A stretch of 43,901 nt of DNA from Candidatus Magasanikiibacteriota bacterium (GTDB taxonomy: Bacteria > Patescibacteriota > Patescibacteriia > Magasanikbacterales > GWA2-37-8). The notes under the pieces are model-generated. The model was not told the DNA's origin. It searched no databases and saw only the letters and a program-made list of their open reading frames with translations. Position 1 is the first letter of the stretch. Every line of letters begins with the position of its first letter. Shown piece by piece: positions 1,042-30,781 of the stretch. The stretch is taken from positions 1 to 43,901 of the forward strand of contig CAWJAS010000001.1 of the NCBI GenBank assembly GCA_963840935.1, written 5' to 3'. The translations under genes and the position numbers were made by a program.

Positions 1042-1188
1042 GTGCCGGGGAGAGGACTCGACCTCGGCTCAAATTTTCTTCCGAAAATTTGGCCTAGCCA
1101 CCGCCTCGCGGTTTGTCTCGCCCGCAAGCTCGCCAAACATCGCTCCGGCGTTCTCGTCCTCTCGTAACTAAAACCATTTAGTTACGAG
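1042..1188 (-). repeat. Structured element downstream of tRNA-Leu(TAG), ending in a 20-bp duplicate of the tRNA 3' end
   Basis: gtgccggggagaggactcga at 1042-1061 and 1188-1207; hairpin 1161-1188. Confidence 0.85.
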
Positions 1189-1272
1189 TGCCGGGGAGAG
1201 GACTCGAACCTCCAATCCCTTTCGGGAACATGCTCCTAAGGCATGCGTGTCTACCAATTTCACCACCCCGGC
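1189..1272 (-). tRNA. tRNA-Leu (TAG)
   Basis: GCCGGGG/CCCCGGC acceptor, CATGC-CTTAGGA-GCATG anticodon arm, long variable arm, GTTCGAG T-loop; CCA not encoded. Confidence 0.95.
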
Positions 1273-16886: not shown

Positions 16887-18680
16887 CTAATCAACGGGCA
16901 ATAATATTTGCAAATCAATTGTTCCATTCACATCAACGGTACCTGTGGTCGACAAATAACCATCGCGTGAAATTTCATAAATATATGTACTAGAACTCAT
17001 GTTGTTAAAAAAACTTTGCCCCGGTGGCGTGCAACTATTGGTATAGGTAAATGCGATTTCAAACAATTGAGGCGTATTTTCTTCATCATCGGTAGACAAA
17101 AATACGCGGTAACGCAGATATCTTTCACCATTATGCCCACTGTAAATTAGGGTAGAAGTGGCTGTGTAAAAACTGGCATCTGTACCGTCTGGCCCGATAA
17201 AATCCCAGCTTTCCGGCGTGCTACTGTTGCTTGTGGCAATTTGGAACTGAACAGGGTTTGCGCCGAGTCCGGGCAATTGGTTAAGCGGGGCCCAAACAAT
17301 ATTATTAAAATTAACCGAACCGCCCATATCAAATGTTGATGACTCGAGCCAACCATTGCTAATATAATCATCTCCGATTAGCGCCAATCGCAAATCGCCG
17401 GCAGGCGAATCCACGCTGACTCCACTATTATCACTAAAATATTTTTCTTCATCTTCATATAATTCTTGTCCACTTCCGTCTGACCAATCAGTTTGGCGAG
17501 AATATCCAAGCCCGGTAATAATTGTTTCGTCGTAGCCGGAACCAAGCAATCTCACGCTTGCGTCGGATAAAGGCAAAAGAGTGCCTGAATCTTTAACACT
17601 CATTAAAAGAGAATAGTCGGTTTTTGGACGTAAAATTATATTTATTTCTTGCGCTAAGCCCGGGTTTAAATACAAAGGTAAAGCCGGAATAGTTCCCGCC
17701 ACATCATATGCCGTTCCCGAAGCCCCAAAATAATAGTCTCCCCACTCAAGTAAATTATTGTAATAATAATATCCGCTTCCATCCAATTGAAACGCATCAA
17801 TAAATTTCGGAGTGTCCGGTTCGGTACCGATTAATTTTTTGCTCCAAATATTTAATGTTTGATTCGGCAAAGCAACACAACTTGGAGTAATGGCCGATAT
17901 TCCGAGTGACGATAACAAATCAATGGAAAAATATATTTCCGTCGCTTGTTGGCTCGCCACGTTAGCTGGCAATTTAACCGGATTCAAAACCAACTCGCTT
18001 GAACTTGTGGTGTAATCATTCGAATGTTCGTCTTTTGACACATATATTTGATATCCAAGAGTGCTCGTGGGCGTATCCACTATTCTTAACCAACCGTCAT
18101 CACCAGTCGTGTCGGTCAAATCAATAGGCGGTGTTGTTGACACGTTTATTACGCGAACAGTGGCACCCGATACAGGGCGCCCGTTGGCATCAAAAACCTG
18201 AATAAACAGAGAGCCATTGAGAGTGTCTCCTTCTCTGTTTTTTGGCGCAATTATTGTGTTTAATACAAACGGCTGTTTTTGTGAGCAATCCGCGCAAATA
18301 ATAGACATTTCAACAAGTTTATAATCAGCCGACGAAGTATCTTGCGGAGTGGTTGTTACCGTGCCGTCAAACGGGTCGTCAATATTACGAATAGTCGTAA
18401 CGATATTAAAATCAATTCCATTTCTGATTATCGTTCTATCTCGCTCTAATACTCCACTTGGGACACCACTAACCAAACCGACATCTTGGTACGGCAAATT
18501 GCGCACAATTTCCAATTGCTCGCTTAAAATTGCCGTCTCCAATATGTGCACTCTTGATAAATAAATAATTTTAAACAAATATCTAACACCACCATATACT
18601 CCGGTCACAAAGATAACAAAAATAGCGACTGCGAGCATCACTTCGGTTAAAGTAAAACCACTTGAAAAATTTTTTTTCAT
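16887..18680 (-). CDS. Large type IV prepilin-like protein (PilV-like) with beta-sandwich/carboxypeptidase-regulatory-like domains
   Basis: SG-FTLTE signal, EIVRNLPY, VFDANGRPVSGATV. Confidence 0.8.
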   Translation of the reverse strand: MKKNFSSGFTLTEVMLAVAIFVIFVTGVYGGVRYLFKIIYLSRVHILETAILSEQLEIVRNLPYQDVGLVSGVPSGVLERDRTIIRNGIDFNIVTTIRNIDDPFDGTVTTTPQDTSSADYKLVEMSIICADCSQKQPFVLNTIIAPKNREGDTLNGSLFIQVFDANGRPVSGATVRVINVSTTPPIDLTDTTGDDGWLRIVDTPTSTLGYQIYVSKDEHSNDYTTSSSELVLNPVKLPANVASQQATEIYFSIDLLSSLGISAITPSCVALPNQTLNIWSKKLIGTEPDTPKFIDAFQLDGSGYYYYNNLLEWGDYYFGASGTAYDVAGTIPALPLYLNPGLAQEINIILRPKTDYSLLMSVKDSGTLLPLSDASVRLLGSGYDETIITGLGYSRQTDWSDGSGQELYEDEEKYFSDNSGVSVDSPAGDLRLALIGDDYISNGWLESSTFDMGGSVNFNNIVWAPLNQLPGLGANPVQFQIATSNSSTPESWDFIGPDGTDASFYTATSTLIYSGHNGERYLRYRVFLSTDDEENTPQLFEIAFTYTNSCTPPGQSFFNNMSSSTYIYEISRDGYLSTTGTVDVNGTIDLQILLPVD

Positions 18681-18758
18681 ATATCGAAGATATTATACCA
18701 CAAAACAGCCGACTTGATTAATCAACGATTTTTTGATAGATTATTATTTATAAACTTC

Positions 18759-18840
18759 GGTCCGGTGGTGAAACTGGTATACACGAGGGACTTAAAATCC
18801 CTTGCCGCAAGGCGTGTGGGTTCGATTCCCACCCGGACCA
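18759..18840 (+). tRNA. tRNA-Leu (TAA)
   Basis: GGTCCGG/CCGGACC acceptor; AGGGA-CTTAAAA-TCCCT anticodon arm; long variable arm. Confidence 0.95.
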
Positions 18841-19051
18841 CTATACAAATAGCAGTGCATTTATTGCACTGCTATTTGTATAGTTTGGACGAGGGAATCG
18901 AACGGGCAGAAATGAGGCGCGAGTCTTTTTGGAAAAAAAGACGAGCAAGCCGAATGTCGCCAATATGCCAGTGGCATATTGGCGCTGCCCAGGGCAAGGA
19001 GTCGAGCCGATTGTGGTCGGCGAGACGACGAGTAATTCCCACCCGGACCAC
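18841..19051 (+). repeat. Structured element downstream of tRNA-Leu(TAA), ending in a 17-bp duplicate of the tRNA 3' end
   Basis: attcccacccggaccac at 18825-18841 and 19035-19051; 19-bp perfect hairpin 18841-18883. Confidence 0.85.
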
Positions 19052-19057
19052 ATAAAC

Positions 19058-19084
19058 AAAATATCCCATTTAATGGGATATTTT
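19058..19084. terminator. Probable bidirectional terminator between the tRNA element and nrdG
   Basis: aaaatatcccatt-t-aatgggatatttt. Confidence 0.7.
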
Positions 19085-19097
19085 ATATTTCGCATGT

Positions 19098-19790
19098 TTA
19101 TCGCCACAGGCACTGCGCGACAAATTTTTTTATTTTTTTACACATCTTTTCAAATTCTTCGTCAGTGTATGTTGTCATTTCGGCAAACAAAGGGTCCAAC
19201 GTTCTCCCCGGCAAAAATTTTTGAAGCACATAGCGCTTGACGCCTTTTAATTCATCGGCGATTTTCAAAATATCTTCTTCAGTAAGCAATTCTTTTACTA
19301 CCGTAGTTCTGAATTCATAATCAATCCCCGATTGACGAATCAAATCAACACTTTTTTTAATTTTTTCCGTATCAATCATTGAGCCGGAATGAGATTGATA
19401 TTTTTCAAGCGGTGATTTGTAATCCATAGCCAAATAATCCAAATAACCATCTCTAACTAGTCGTTCAATCATTTCCGGACGACTGCCATTAGTATCCAGC
19501 TTCACCGCAAACCCAAGCGACTTCAACTTTGAAATAAAATCAGGCAAATCATTGTGCAAAGTCGGTTCCCCGCCGGTGATCACCACACCGTCTAATTTAT
19601 TTTGACGCGTGGATAAAAAATCCAAAATCTCTTTTTCGGTTACAGGCGTAAACATTCCTTGGGTCGGATTAATTAATTCCGGATTATGACAAAACGGGCA
19701 TCGGAATGGGCATCCTTGCGTAAACAGAATCGCTGAAGCACGCCCCGGAAAATCAATGAGCGAAAATTTTTGCCATCCGCCAAATATCAT
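19098..19790 (-). CDS. nrdG: Anaerobic ribonucleotide reductase activating radical SAM protein
   Basis: CPFRCPFC motif, ITGGEP, LDTNG; overlaps the nrdD stop (ATGA). Confidence 0.9.
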   Translation of the reverse strand: MIFGGWQKFSLIDFPGRASAILFTQGCPFRCPFCHNPELINPTQGMFTPVTEKEILDFLSTRQNKLDGVVITGGEPTLHNDLPDFISKLKSLGFAVKLDTNGSRPEMIERLVRDGYLDYLAMDYKSPLEKYQSHSGSMIDTEKIKKSVDLIRQSGIDYEFRTTVVKELLTEEDILKIADELKGVKRYVLQKFLPGRTLDPLFAEMTTYTDEEFEKMCKKIKKFVAQCLWR

Positions 19791-21895
19791 ACTTTGATCG
19801 GCAGGAGGGTTTTATAAGTCTTTCTGATTTTAAATTCAGCTCTCTTGCCCTTGTTCCATTGTTCCACCGGGCGCAAATATCCGACCACGCGCGAATACAC
19901 TTCACAACGCGCCTTGCACTCCGGGCAAGTATTATGCTCGCCCGATAAATATCCGTGCGTCGGGCAAACACTGAATGTCGGCGAAAATGTAAAATACGGC
20001 AAACGATAATTCTCGCAAATTTTCTTTACCATACTCTTTACCGCGTTCGGGTCGGTGATTTTTTCTCCGACAAATAAATGCAGTACGGTTCCACCGGTAT
20101 ATTTGGACTGCAAATTATCTTGCAAATCAAGAGCTTCAAAAATATCATCCGTAAAATTAACCGGTAAGTGGGTGGAATTGGTATAGAACGGGTCAACTCC
20201 GGTTTTTTTGTAAATATCTTCATTGGCAACAATTATATCCGGATAAAGTTCTTTGTCTTTTTGAGCCAAACGGAACGAGGTGCCTTCGGCCGGTGTTGCT
20301 TCCAAATTGAAGTTATTACCGGTTTCCTTTTGGAAATCAACCATTTTCTTTCGCATAAAATCCATTACTTTTTCGGCAAAAGCGCGTCCTTTTTCACTGG
20401 CAATATTTTCATGCATCAAATTAATAATCGCCTCATTCATACCAAGAATTCCAATGGTATTGAAATGATTTTTCCAATAAACCCCATGGCGCTCTTTCAT
20501 ATTGCGCAAATAATATTTGGAATATGGGTATAAATTTTTCTCAGTGAATTTTTCAAGAACTTTTCGCTTTATTTCCAAGCTGTCTTTGGCCATCTCCATT
20601 AATCTTCCAAGCTTTTTCAAAAAATCATTTTCATTTTTGGCCGTATAACCCAAGCGAGGCAAATTCAAAGTAACCACTCCAATTGAACCAGTCAAAGGAT
20701 TCGCGCCAAAAAGTCCGCCACCGCGCTTTTCAAGCTGGCGATTATCAATCCTCAAACGGCAACACATTGAGCGGGCATCTTCCGGACTCATATCGGAATT
20801 AATAAAATTGGAAAAATACGGAATGCCATATTTGGCTGTAATTTCCCAAAGCGATTTGATGCGCGGATTATCCCAATCAAAATCTTTGGTGATATTATAG
20901 GTGGGAATTGGAAAGGTAAAAACTCGTCCCTTGGCGTCACCCTGCATCATCACCTCAAAAAAAGCCTTATTAAACAAATCCATTTCTTTTTGAAAATCCC
21001 CATAACAATCTTTTTGTGGTTTTCCGCCAATAATCACCGCTTGGTCTTTATAATAATTTGGGATATTCAAATCAAGCGTCACATTGGTGAAAGGCGTTTG
21101 AAACCCGACGCGTGTCGGCACATTCATGTTGAACAAAAACTCCTGAAGCGCCTGCTTGATTTCATCGTAAGTTAATTTGTCATAGCGGATAAACGGCGCA
21201 AGCAAGGTGTCAAAATTTGAAAACGCCTGCGCTCCCGCTGCCTCGCCCTGCAAAGTGTAAAAAAAGTTAACCACCTGCCCCAAAGCGCTTCTAAAATGCT
21301 TTGGCGGTTTGCTTTCAATTTTTCCGGACACACCCCTAAAACCTTCCATGAGTAAATCATGCAAATCCCAACCAACGCAATAAACCGACAAAATATTCAA
21401 ATCATGAATATGCATATCCCCGCTCAAATAGGCCTCTTTAATTTCTTTCGGATAGATTTTATTCAACCAGTAAACCTTGGAAATTTCTGATGAAATATAA
21501 TTATTAAGGCCCTGCAAAGAAAAAGTCATGTTGCTGTTTTCGTTCACTTGCCAATCAAGCTGGTCCAAATATTGGTCAACCAAATTAACGCTCGCTTTGT
21601 TGTTAAGCTCGCGCAATTGGGCGTGCTGGTCGCGATAAATAATGTATGATTTGGCGGTTTGCCTGTATGACGAGCCCAGAAGTACTTCTTCCACCAAGTC
21701 TTGAATCTGTTCGACTGTCGGGATTTTGGCTTCAATATAATTTTCGGCTACTGACAATGCTTTAAGAGTCAATTTCTCTGCCATTTTTTCGTCAAACTCG
21801 CCCGTGGCCGCGCCGGCCTTAACGAGCGCCTTGGTTATTTTTTTGGGGTCAAATTTCACTGTCCGACCGTCTCGCTTTTTGATTTTTTGGAACAT
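19787..21895 (-). CDS. nrdD: Class III anaerobic ribonucleoside-triphosphate reductase with ATP cone
   Basis: IKKRDG ATP cone, SMCCRL, ATPAEG, CxxH/CxxC metal site, glycyl loop SRVVGYLRP. Confidence 0.95.
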   Translation of the reverse strand: MFQKIKKRDGRTVKFDPKKITKALVKAGAATGEFDEKMAEKLTLKALSVAENYIEAKIPTVEQIQDLVEEVLLGSSYRQTAKSYIIYRDQHAQLRELNNKASVNLVDQYLDQLDWQVNENSNMTFSLQGLNNYISSEISKVYWLNKIYPKEIKEAYLSGDMHIHDLNILSVYCVGWDLHDLLMEGFRGVSGKIESKPPKHFRSALGQVVNFFYTLQGEAAGAQAFSNFDTLLAPFIRYDKLTYDEIKQALQEFLFNMNVPTRVGFQTPFTNVTLDLNIPNYYKDQAVIIGGKPQKDCYGDFQKEMDLFNKAFFEVMMQGDAKGRVFTFPIPTYNITKDFDWDNPRIKSLWEITAKYGIPYFSNFINSDMSPEDARSMCCRLRIDNRQLEKRGGGLFGANPLTGSIGVVTLNLPRLGYTAKNENDFLKKLGRLMEMAKDSLEIKRKVLEKFTEKNLYPYSKYYLRNMKERHGVYWKNHFNTIGILGMNEAIINLMHENIASEKGRAFAEKVMDFMRKKMVDFQKETGNNFNLEATPAEGTSFRLAQKDKELYPDIIVANEDIYKKTGVDPFYTNSTHLPVNFTDDIFEALDLQDNLQSKYTGGTVLHLFVGEKITDPNAVKSMVKKICENYRLPYFTFSPTFSVCPTHGYLSGEHNTCPECKARCEVYSRVVGYLRPVEQWNKGKRAEFKIRKTYKTLLPIKV

Positions 21896-30647: not shown

Positions 30648-30674
30648 ATAGTTCAAGTCCAAACCGCAAAAATA

Positions 30675-30707
30675 AAAATACTTCCCAATTATAGGGAAGT
30701 ATTTTTT
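30675..30707. terminator. Bidirectional terminator
   Basis: aaaaatacttccc-aattata-gggaagtattttt between convergent genes. Confidence 0.75.
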
Positions 30708-30708
30708 G

Positions 30709-30781
30709 TTGCGGGGCTAGGACTTGAACCTAGAACCTTCGGGTTATGGGCCCGACGAGCTGCCAGTTGCTCTACCCCGCT
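30709..30781 (-). tRNA. Initiator tRNA-fMet (CAT)
   Basis: Three consecutive G-C pairs in the anticodon stem (TCGGG-CCCATAA-CCCGA); unpaired A1:A72. Confidence 0.92.

Follow-up and report, generated by a model that had tools for sequence, protein, structure and literature searches.

The stretch of DNA analysed here (the window, 43,901 nucleotides) belongs to a Candidatus Magasanikiibacteriota genome, referred to as G000, of 910,183 bp in two contigs. It is rated 100% complete and has 47 tRNA genes according to ARAGORN, seven of them within the window. The subject of this work is a short structured element directly behind one of these seven genes, tRNA-Leu(TAA), which lies at 18759-18841 on the plus strand (ARAGORN; Rfam tRNA, 60.6 bits). 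A previous sequence-only reading had described the element as tailored to its tRNA, general and undescribed. That observation was confirmed, and its interpretation is supported by the analysis given in the following.

All parts of the element lie on the plus strand. The last 17 nucleotides (nt) of tRNA-Leu(TAA), 18825-18841, form the proximal copy of a direct repeat found by a repeat search of 18700-19200. Directly 3' of the gene follows a perfect hairpin of 20 bp (arms 18840-18859 and 18865-18884, repeat search). This hairpin is terminator-like, yet it is followed only by TTT, and comparison of copies of the element showed no homology in it. The spacer behind it, TTGGACGA at 18885-18892, is a weak anti-acceptor segment, and the single-sequence fold joins five of its bases to the acceptor portion of the distal repeat; a spacing of 9 nt is equal on both sides of the hairpin. 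Next comes the antisense T-arm (aT), GGGAATCGAAC at 18893-18903, the exact reverse complement of 18820-18830, i.e. of tRNA positions 53-63. In the first part of the core (18904-18990; RNAalifold on 10 copies and single-sequence fold), helix P2 is made of GGGCAG (18904-18909) and CTGCCC (18985-18990) and encloses hairpins Ha (18923-18942, tcttttt/aaaaaga with a GGAA loop) and Hb (18958-18984, 13 bp, CGCCAATATGCCA/TGGCATATTGGCG, also given by the repeat search). The 3' part of the core holds hairpin Hc, GCCGATTGTGGTCGGC at 19006-19021 (RNAalifold, single-sequence fold). The distal direct repeat (DR), ATTCCCACCCGGACCAC at 19035-19051, is an exact 17-nt copy of tRNA positions 58-74, from A58 of the T-loop to N73 plus C. 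Behind it stands the terminator-like hairpin of the original locus (19058-19084, repeat search), and ATAAACAAAA just 5' of this hairpin is also present at the empty site of a congener, G004 (L309). The perfect hairpin, the exact antisense segment, both internal hairpins and the 17-nt duplicate of the 3' end without GTTC, followed by a terminator, had been seen in the sequence-only reading and were all recovered here, with the distal copy beginning at A58.

The sense strand of 18885-19051 folds with -72.4 kcal/mol (z = -6.4), a value which none of 200 shuffles reached; the opposite strand has z = -4.6. In the predicted structure, aT would form a closing helix P1 with the head of the DR or, alternatively, would pair with the tRNA's own T-arm. 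One clear homologue in G000 is 77% identical and lies behind tRNA-Glu(CTC). Contigs from two metatranscriptome runs (7-9% of sampled words) were compared with positions 17500-20500 and covered only conserved tRNA parts (from other organisms, with loose ends) and 19485-19865 in the neighbouring gene, none of them the element; such contigs cannot show absence.

A second element of the window, element 1, lies behind tRNA-Leu(TAG) (1188-1272, minus strand) and occupies 1042-1187 on the minus strand, with a match to our covariance model R1 at 1042-1162 (129.7 bits). It consists of a hairpin (H1), aT, a 121-nt core and a 20-nt DR at 1042-1061, and BLAST finds about 13 homologues in G000. The sequence-only reading had ascribed the same architecture to both elements. 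This holds for the plan; the two belong to different subfamilies, named type A (element 1) and type B (the tRNA-Leu(TAA) element) in this analysis, and share no alignable core.

The common plan can be described as tRNA, hairpin, aT (with an anti-acceptor segment, aA, in type A), a structured core with GNRA loops, and a DR of positions 56/58-74. On the tRNA strand, type A runs from an optional terminator-like hairpin or GAACGAAGTGAG leader through aA, H1, aT and core to the DR. In this type, aA comprises about 9 nt complementary to tRNA positions 66-74, aT is antisense to positions 53-65 and ends in GAAC, and the DR equals positions 56-74. The type A core contains P2 (CGCC:GGCG) around a covarying hairpin, and then P4 (GGCTAG:C.AAGCC) around a hairpin with a GGAA loop. 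The span from aT to the end of the DR is exactly 121 or 122 nt in most copies; we speak of a constant 121 nt for type A and 161 nt for type B. In the case of type B, aT is followed by P2 (GGGCAG:CTGCCC) around the GGAA hairpin and a covarying hairpin of 12-13 bp, by a third hairpin and by a DR starting at A58; nine of ten copies span 161-164 nt, and one spans 181 nt with a 20-nt insert. Two further cores were found in the same frame of aT and DR: type C, a small core after tRNA-Asn, and type D, at tRNA-Leu of the congener G002 and at tRNA-Glu of a further genome (G079).

The linkage of these elements to tRNA genes was compared with chance. The last 15 nt of a tRNA gene recur exactly within 400 nt downstream of that same gene for 15 of the 47 tRNAs of G000, and upstream for none of the 47; when tails were paired with the downstream regions of other tRNAs, an exact match was obtained in 8 of 2162 pairings. 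Inverted matches of at least 9 nt to a tRNA's own positions 53-65 are likewise above chance, as they occur within 150 nt downstream of 8/47 tRNAs and upstream of 0/47. Model R1 detects 15 type A copies in G000. In the tRNAs of this genome, the DR always starts in the T-loop, between C56 and A58, and ends one base past the discriminator. At the G000 tRNA genes whose 3' end was inspected, the base after the discriminator is C, CCA is not encoded, and the DRs end at that C. The DR measures 15-20 nt, or 52-72 nt through the terminator in some copies, and there is no target duplication of fixed length. The elements are 130-210 bp long and stand behind tRNA or transfer-messenger RNA (tmRNA) genes only, in one orientation. 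With one third of the tRNA genes occupied, they are the main dispersed repeat of a 0.9-Mb genome that is otherwise without insertion sequences (IS).

Each antisense segment fits its own tRNA, as the sequence-only reading had claimed from two cases. Over the nine variable positions of the type A aT, the mean match to the own tRNA is 6.30/9 as compared to 4.57/9 for other tRNAs, and the observed sum was reached in 0 of 20000 permutations; this scoring is ungapped, so copies with a shift of 1 nt score low. Similarly, aA pairs with the own tail at 6.71/10 positions versus 5.78 +/- 0.12 after permutation (0/5000 reach this value; 55 of 91 copies with room), a test that is inflated by rows in which one sequence comes from several samples. 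Single cases illustrate the same point. The unusual GTGCGATTCCC of tRNA-Glu(CTC), a GTGC variant, is answered by GGGAATCGCAC in its elements; a tRNA-Lys with GTCCGAAT, a GTCC variant, is followed by an aT that ends in GGAC; and at the tRNA-Leu(TAA) of G002, which has a changed T-stem pair, the element carries a perfectly matching GTGAGAATCGAAC. This tRNA-Glu(CTC) (G000:C1:636330-636402; L054, L435) is peculiar in itself, with a T-loop start GTGCGATTC and G at the universal T/psi position, conserved in three congeners. The apparent tailoring may in part go back to old scaffolds in which gene conversion has swapped the cores.

To describe the fold, 32 copies from G000 and its relatives were aligned, and 27 trimmed type A copies then made up alignment A1. 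RNAalifold predicts 35 pairs on A1, and in 25 of these both sides have changed. Paired cells make up 93.7%, a figure that drops to 34-41% if the partners are shifted by 1-3 columns; this control is somewhat favourable, as alignment and structure come from the same sequences, and the margin is large all the same. None of 500 shuffles reached any of five measures. For type B, 43 pairs with 15 compensatory ones were obtained from 10 copies (RNAalifold), and GGAA tetraloops occur in both types. G-T cells (42) clearly outnumber A-C cells (6), and the GNRA loops stand on the tRNA strand. Altogether this indicates that it is the tRNA-sense strand that folds, be it as RNA or as a DNA strand.

A peculiarity of the pairing was seen in alignments A1 and A2, where 5'-GA-3' of the tRNA tail often faces GA rather than TC in aA or aT, giving tandem G.A. 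One version of the last hairpin is mostly tandem G.A as well. Such pairs were seen in many copies and fit RNA helices.

The tRNA, element and DR were also folded together at 14 loci of G000. In 14/14, the minimum-energy form pairs the tRNA's own 3' end with aT/aA, and in all of them the acceptor and T stems are predicted to be completed by the distal copy. A fold constrained to the native tRNA is 2.6-11.3 kcal/mol less favourable than one constrained to the distal copy.

These structural results bear on one alternative in particular, namely that the element is a non-coding RNA useful to the host, co-transcribed with the tRNA or scaffolded on it. The mimic of acceptor and T stems formed by aA:DR and aT:DR may then lead RNase P, RNase Z and the CCA-adding enzyme to release and stabilise a small RNA, which may act e.g. 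as regulator, sponge or decoy for the 3' end of its own tRNA. The strong covariation, the GNRA loops, the strand asymmetry and the constant length all agree with such a role. The same applies to the reproduction of the cognate acceptor and T stems by aA-H1-aT and DR with a hairpin exactly at the 65/66 junction, to a DR that stays identical while cores diverge by 18-25%, and to the phylum-wide occurrence of the family. We nevertheless regard a host RNA as unlikely, in view of the distribution and turnover of the copies, which are described next.

Type A was searched for with model R1 in genomes and with a two-block pattern in metagenomes and viral contigs. A BLAST search with a type A copy finds the type in 12 of 41 relatives, G000 included. 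With R1, 39 of 151 sampled genomes of the order are positive (family f1 29/59, f5 7/58, f8 2/7) with 1-15 copies per genome, and in a phylum-wide sample 9/151 genomes have matches, including G000 and one genome of its family; elsewhere in the phylum the type occurs more weakly. Four distant matches of the phylum-wide sample were inspected, and all four have tRNA, hairpin, aT, core and DR. At the best locus per genome in the order, a same-strand tRNA lies 23-211 nt upstream in 26 of 28 cases; the DR at these 26 loci agrees at 19/19 positions in 15, at 18/19 in 4, at 16-17 in 2 and at 13 or fewer in 5. The metagenome scan gave at least 80 type A loci, of which at least 64 have a same-strand tRNA within 300 nt, representing at least 30 isoacceptors, with a DR of 19/19 in at least 40 loci and 18/19 in at least 8. 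Among the matches listed, 16 metagenome loci have no tRNA, 9 of them less than 250 nt from a contig end, and at several tRNA-less loci only the last few tRNA bases and a terminator precede the element. One metagenome copy stands behind a tmRNA-like 3' end, and there the repeat runs through CCA and terminator. Together with the 15 type A and at least three type B copies in G000, these counts bear out, far beyond two instances, the generality for which the sequence-only reading had argued.

This distribution is patchy: 39/151 genomes within the order, and from 2 to 15 copies within one genus, which speaks against a host RNA. Comparison of single sites among six congeners (G000 to G005) gave a more dynamic picture. 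The tRNA-Leu(TAA) gene is identical in the congeners. In G004 it is followed only by the terminator and the same convergent downstream gene, which identifies an empty site. The same position is occupied by type B in G000 and G005, by type D in G002, by type A in G001, where the DR has 2 mismatches and aT has 1, and by an unrelated insert of about 1 kb in G003. The variation behind one and the same tRNA among congeners, from an empty site to different core types, the occurrence of tandem, truncated and interrupted copies, and a terminator-like hairpin between tRNA and element in many copies all argue against a host function. The host-RNA reading is compatible with the interpretation that we prefer, a protein-less selfish family, which is set out below.

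Nested copies allow the order of insertion to be read. At tRNA-Glu(TTC), G005 has the tRNA, terminator, type B and DR, and one G005 copy at this tRNA is truncated inside aT. In G000, the tRNA is followed by the terminator, type A, DR, a diverged terminator copy, a type B-like element and a second DR; the left junction of the type B-like element is as in G005, and its DR is interrupted by a 22-nt hairpin. From these two arrangements we conclude that the newer insertion adjoins the tRNA and has duplicated positions 56-74 together with the terminator. At tRNA-Asn and tRNA-Arg(CCT), the decayed copies are the distal ones. The repeat runs through the terminator in G000 at tRNA-Lys(CTT) (52 nt), tRNA-Glu(TTC) (about 55 nt, diverged) and tRNA-Pro(GGG) (72 nt), and also in several relatives. 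Among the matches listed, 49 metagenome copies have a good DR, and their repeat stops at the tRNA end in 41 and continues through the terminator in 7. In the case of tRNA-Pro(GGG) (G000:C1:498056-498481, minus strand), a 21-nt spacer and a 32-nt partial tRNA copy (about positions 43-74) precede the element, and a 72-nt unit of positions 56-74, spacer and partial copy is repeated after it.

Cores are also exchanged. In G005, the type B cores at tRNA-Leu(TAA) and tRNA-Glu(TTC) differ in 5 of 133 columns (3.8%), yet 6 of the 17 DR positions are different between the two sites. The orthologous core at tRNA-Glu(TTC) in G000 is very different from that in G005. Near-identical cores within G005 next to a divergent orthologue in G000 mean that the tRNA-Glu(TTC) core was replaced inside a fixed frame of aT and DR. 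Type A cores, in turn, are mosaics of a few versions of each hairpin. Between species, copies at the same tRNA have cores that are 18-25% different and DRs identical at 17/17 positions; the chance of zero change in the 28 positions of aT and DR at the rate of the core is 0.0003-0.004, if the copies are orthologous.

Taken together, these observations lead us to propose an undescribed, protein-less selfish family with at least four core types (A-D) at the 3' ends of tRNA and tmRNA genes of this phylum, whose members have small genomes; it would insert into the T-loop and bring a replacement 3' end. We would assign this interpretation a probability of about 0.5. The transcription, refolding, processing and recombination route that we infer would be as follows. 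Insertion would in effect take place between tRNA nt 55 and 56-58, with the element-borne 3' end replacing the original one. As the element brings its own replacement, the tRNA gene stays intact, and the displaced original is the distal DR. The segments aT/aA could pair with either copy of the 3' end and so close a multi-hairpin fold of 121 or 161 nt on the tRNA-sense strand. Termination at the hairpin behind the tRNA would give a normal tRNA. A read-through RNA, on the other hand, could refold, with aT/aA locking the proximal copy and the distal copy completing the cloverleaf; the product would be a tRNA-scaffolded RNA that tRNA end-processing enzymes could trim.

Spread would require no enzyme of the element's own. 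The tRNA flanks, positions 1-55 and 56-74, might serve as homology arms for entry into genomes with the same tRNA, and the repeats would permit precise loss of the element. Gene conversion of cores between resident copies is shown, and its limits would be set by the segments derived from the T-loop. A new tRNA would be reached rarely, by microhomology in the T-loop with its nearly universal sequence, and aT/aA might then be adjusted either through selection acting on the fold or through a templated correction that crosses the hairpin, after the concept of quasipalindrome correction.

Several points weigh against this proposal. No transcript, excision product or transfer event was observed. The refolding is a secondary-structure prediction that ignores tertiary structure, base modifications and co-transcriptional processing. 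A right arm of 17-19 nt is short for RecA-type recombination, and the model leaves the first acquisition of aT, aA and DR for a new tRNA unexplained. Yet at least 30 tRNAs are occupied, and cores at different tRNAs can be 94-100% identical over 48-115 nt. Some DRs are decayed (at most 13/19 at 5 of 26 loci in relatives) or interrupted by the 22-nt insert, indicating that the host needs no intact DR. Finally, one mechanism must cover both DRs that end at the tRNA and those extended through the terminator.

A bolder version of the protein-less family can be put forward only tentatively. Here the element would be a mobile RNA/DNA parasite that uses the tRNA as promoter, scaffold, processing signal and homology arm at once, with aT/aA as a programmable guide and a read-through RNA that amounts to a tRNA carrying the element as a T-loop insertion. 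Such a guide may choose the target tRNA or may be re-templated from it.

The possible involvement of enzymes was examined in the genome itself. Two matches to tyrosine recombinases (PF00589) were found in G000, a full one at C1:569894 and a partial one at 146922, neither at an element, and no integrase was found in or beside any element examined. Six orphan metagenome copies showed no integrase-like open reading frame (ORF) upstream by eye, without a Pfam scan, over 2.1-2.6 kb for three of them (L369, L381, L392) and 0.4-0.7 kb for the other three. These results concern the idea that the elements are miniature or decayed integrative elements, whose repeats are the attachment sites attL/attR of tyrosine-integrase elements with crossover in the T-loop and which are mobilised in trans, as satellites without integrase, by phages or plasmids. 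Island integration is classically recognised by a direct repeat that extends from the T-loop to the end of a tRNA or tmRNA gene, and the terminator-like hairpin supplied for the restored tRNA would fit as well. Other mobile DNA does use tRNA 3' ends here, e.g. a 6.7-kb island at tRNA-Asp of G002. We still consider integrative remnants quite improbable. The only full tyrosine recombinase of G000 is far from the elements, which have no integrase, and none is apparent upstream of the three orphan copies with the longer flanks. One core at 30 or more tRNAs, each with its own repeat, would call for an integrase without sequence need in the exchanged segment. The sequence left of the type A DR (GAAGCC) is constant and does not provide a T-stem-like inverted core site. 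Remnants would keep neither a covarying fold nor a constant length, and collections of viruses, phages and plasmids gave no match (see below).

The island of G002 deserves a description of its own, as it resolves here the situation of those loci at which the tRNA is missing directly before the element. The tRNA-Asp of G002 lies 6.85 kb upstream of an older type A element, and the gap is filled by the 6.7-kb island (L322, G002:C4:63500-71200), which entered between the tRNA and an element already present. The island is integrated at the extreme 3' end of tRNA-Asp. Its ORFs include that of a 497-aa large serine recombinase, which overlaps the tRNA with its 3' end, as well as one for a Rep-like protein and one that resembles a DNA methyltransferase.

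Co-occurrence with a reverse transcriptase or an HUH nuclease, as suggested in the sequence-only reading, was tested and not found. Among 41 genomes, reverse transcriptase (PF00078) occurs in 5 of the 12 that carry elements and in 17 of the 29 that do not, i.e. there is no association, and no match was obtained in G002 and G004 despite 8-9 copies each. Y1 transposase, IS110 and TnpB-type genes were not found in G000, self-BLAST of G000 showed no IS-like repeat, and neither an RNA-guided nuclease or recombinase family nor a Tn7-like gene was found. This evidence bears on an RNA-guided or RNA-mediated mobility, in which aT/aA would act as guide to the tRNA gene or the tRNA and copying would be target-primed or proceed by template switching. 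The complementarity between guide and target is significant. A right junction fixed at 56-58 next to a variable left end (aT, H1-aT, aA-H1-aT or leader), the duplications that run through the terminator (52, about 55 and 72 nt) and the truncation within aT at tRNA-Glu(TTC) of G005 would also suit such copying. Against it stand the reverse transcriptase counts just given, the lack of a match in G002 and G004, and the failure to find a guided nuclease or recombinase family. Furthermore, the junctions bear no CCA or A-tail marks (CA follows 2 of 14 DRs), and the reverse transcriptase of G000 adjoins an Avd-like gene and so resembles a diversity-generating retroelement. RNA-guided mobility thus appears very unlikely to us.

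That reverse transcriptase, the sole one of G000, has 335 aa (C1:728118-731741, L047). Next to it lies the Avd-like gene, which encodes a four-helix bundle, and both copies of a 1-kb inverted repeat with 93% identity (C1:725293-726297 and 731217-732221) flank it. It looks like part of a diversity-generating retroelement.

Some other candidates could be rejected. A group I intron is contradicted by the lack of any Intron_gpI match on the elements, though the same model detects a true intron in the tRNA-Asn of G005; nor is there a G-U at the would-be 5' splice site, a terminal G or a group I core that an intron would show. An archaeal-type tRNA intron or split tRNA was dismissed because no splicing enzymes were found and the proximal copy gives an intact tRNA; RtcB (PF01139) and the tRNA splicing endonuclease (PF01974) were not found in the 100% complete G000. 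In the case of a miniature inverted-repeat transposable element (MITE), the inverted segments should not vary with each tRNA, as they do here; no parent IS was found in G000, and the repeat length is not fixed. A snap-back or P-nucleotide origin of aT as the sole mechanism was rejected too, since the acceptor part that lies between T-arm and hairpin is only partly complementary and H1 interrupts aA/aT.

The true intron mentioned above is located in the anticodon region of tRNA-Asn(GTT) of G005 (L018:1085-1409; G005:C1, about 521.7 kb; Rfam Intron_gpI 56.8 bits, E = 1.8e-12). ARAGORN missed this tRNA because of the intron, and a type A element still follows it.

Databases and literature were consulted for known relatives. 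On the element loci only tRNA reaches threshold in Rfam 15, other families staying far below their gathering scores; a scan of the region and seven other loci returned tRNA, one tmRNA and one group I intron, the latter two outside the elements. BLAST against a phage collection gave no match for types A and B, and against a plasmid collection none for type A. Among 2.9 million viral contigs there were 0 matches to the specific two-block pattern, and scans of genomes and viral contigs with a bare 14-mer returned only chance matches in unrelated organisms. No description of a protein-less, structured, tRNA-matched family was found in full texts, supplementary files being outside the search. In Rfam 15, the phage and plasmid collections and the literature searched, no counterpart of this real and general family was found, and the earlier description of an undescribed system holds within these sources.

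The nearest described case is that of displaced tRNA fragments of integrated islands, as presented in two papers (PMC4383910, PMC9897764). Islands and prophages at tRNA or tmRNA genes resemble our elements in the 3' target, the gene repair by element-borne sequence, the displaced T-loop repeat and the gene-proximal position of newer insertions. In contrast to them, the elements measure 130-210 bp, carry no integrase or other gene and place one core at 30 or more tRNAs, and they add an antisense T-arm and acceptor as well as a covarying fold of constant length. MITEs and the REP (repetitive extragenic palindromic), Correia and RPE (Rickettsia palindromic element) repeats are alike in being short, non-coding, multi-copy, foldable and patchy, with nested and tandem copies. 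Unlike the constant transposase-binding repeats of MITEs, the inverted ends of our elements (aT/aA versus DR) copy the target. A term search of a work on prokaryotic MITEs (PMC11602168) found no text on tRNA-linked MITEs or on this phylum.

A mobile-element model has been proposed for the disruption of archaeal tRNA genes (PMC3293823). Archaeal T-loop introns and split tRNAs share the insertion point in the T-loop, the complementary flanks and the proposed link to mobile DNA with the elements described here; on the other hand, the gene is uninterrupted here, its proximal 3' end is complete, and no bulge-helix-bulge is evident. As regards tRNA-linked small RNAs, the likeness would lie in the processing by tRNA enzymes of an RNA that derives from or mimics a tRNA, as proposed here. 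Such RNAs include the small RNAs from 3' external transcribed spacers, tmRNA, the Y-RNA-like YrlA of bacteria and mascRNA, which are tRNA-derived or mimic acceptor and T stems. To our knowledge, no such RNA contains a copy of the acceptor and T stem of a neighbouring tRNA, nor does any occur in many copies at many tRNAs. Elements with an internal segment complementary to their insertion site are also known, namely group II introns with their exon- and intron-binding sites (EBS/IBS), the bridge RNA of IS110 and tRNA-homing CRISPR-associated transposons. Our elements are like these in the complementarity to their own site and carry a sense copy of that site in addition. What sets them apart is that neither an intron ribozyme nor a gene of the IS110 recombinase, TnpB/Cas12-like or Tn7-like kind was found.

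If the proposal of a protein-less family is true, DNA would spread without an encoded enzyme, with the most highly conserved genes providing both landing pads and homology arms, and the disrupted tRNA genes of archaea would have a parallel in bacteria. It would also follow that tRNA precursors can fold in an alternative way, a distal copy taking the place of the tRNA's own 3' end. Should the read-through RNA carry the element as a T-loop insertion, this would be a bacterial counterpart of the archaeal T-loop introns and split tRNAs and a living 'tRNA-like genomic tag'. The family would further contribute two or more structured RNA motifs with good support, of 121 nt and 161 nt, which are absent from Rfam, and it would have consequences for tRNA annotation and for those island-finding tools that use tRNA fragments. 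In its target-matched antisense and sense arms, nature offers a design that might serve as a tRNA-specific RNA scaffold or sensor.

Some minor observations remain to be described. Behind tRNA-Met(CAT) (30708-30781), a solo left end occupies 30651-30707 on the minus strand. It consists of a terminator hairpin, the anti-acceptor TTGCGG and the aT GGACTTGAAC at 30651-30660, with no core and no DR. TTGCGG and GGACTTGAAC make up a near-complete antisense copy of the 3' end of this tRNA. This may be a truncated element or a palindrome extension that arose de novo.

A palindromic mini-insert of 22 nt (consensus near CCCNAAGGGRTCCCTTYGGGA) is nested in the cores of five type A copies. It is further found twice inside a DR, near the junction of T-stem and acceptor, in G000 at tRNA-Lys(TTT) (C1:512254-512387) and in the distal copy at tRNA-Glu(TTC) (C1:248380-248420). 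This suggests a second, even smaller insertion sequence.

Lastly, two tmRNA genes with different tag peptides are predicted by ARAGORN in G000, at C1:688918-689313 and 769028-769438. A repeat of 5.75 kb with 99.3% identity is shared between the two contigs (C2:9240-14989 and C1:759294-765042), and from its position next to tRNA-Val and tRNA-Ile it is probably a ribosomal RNA operon.

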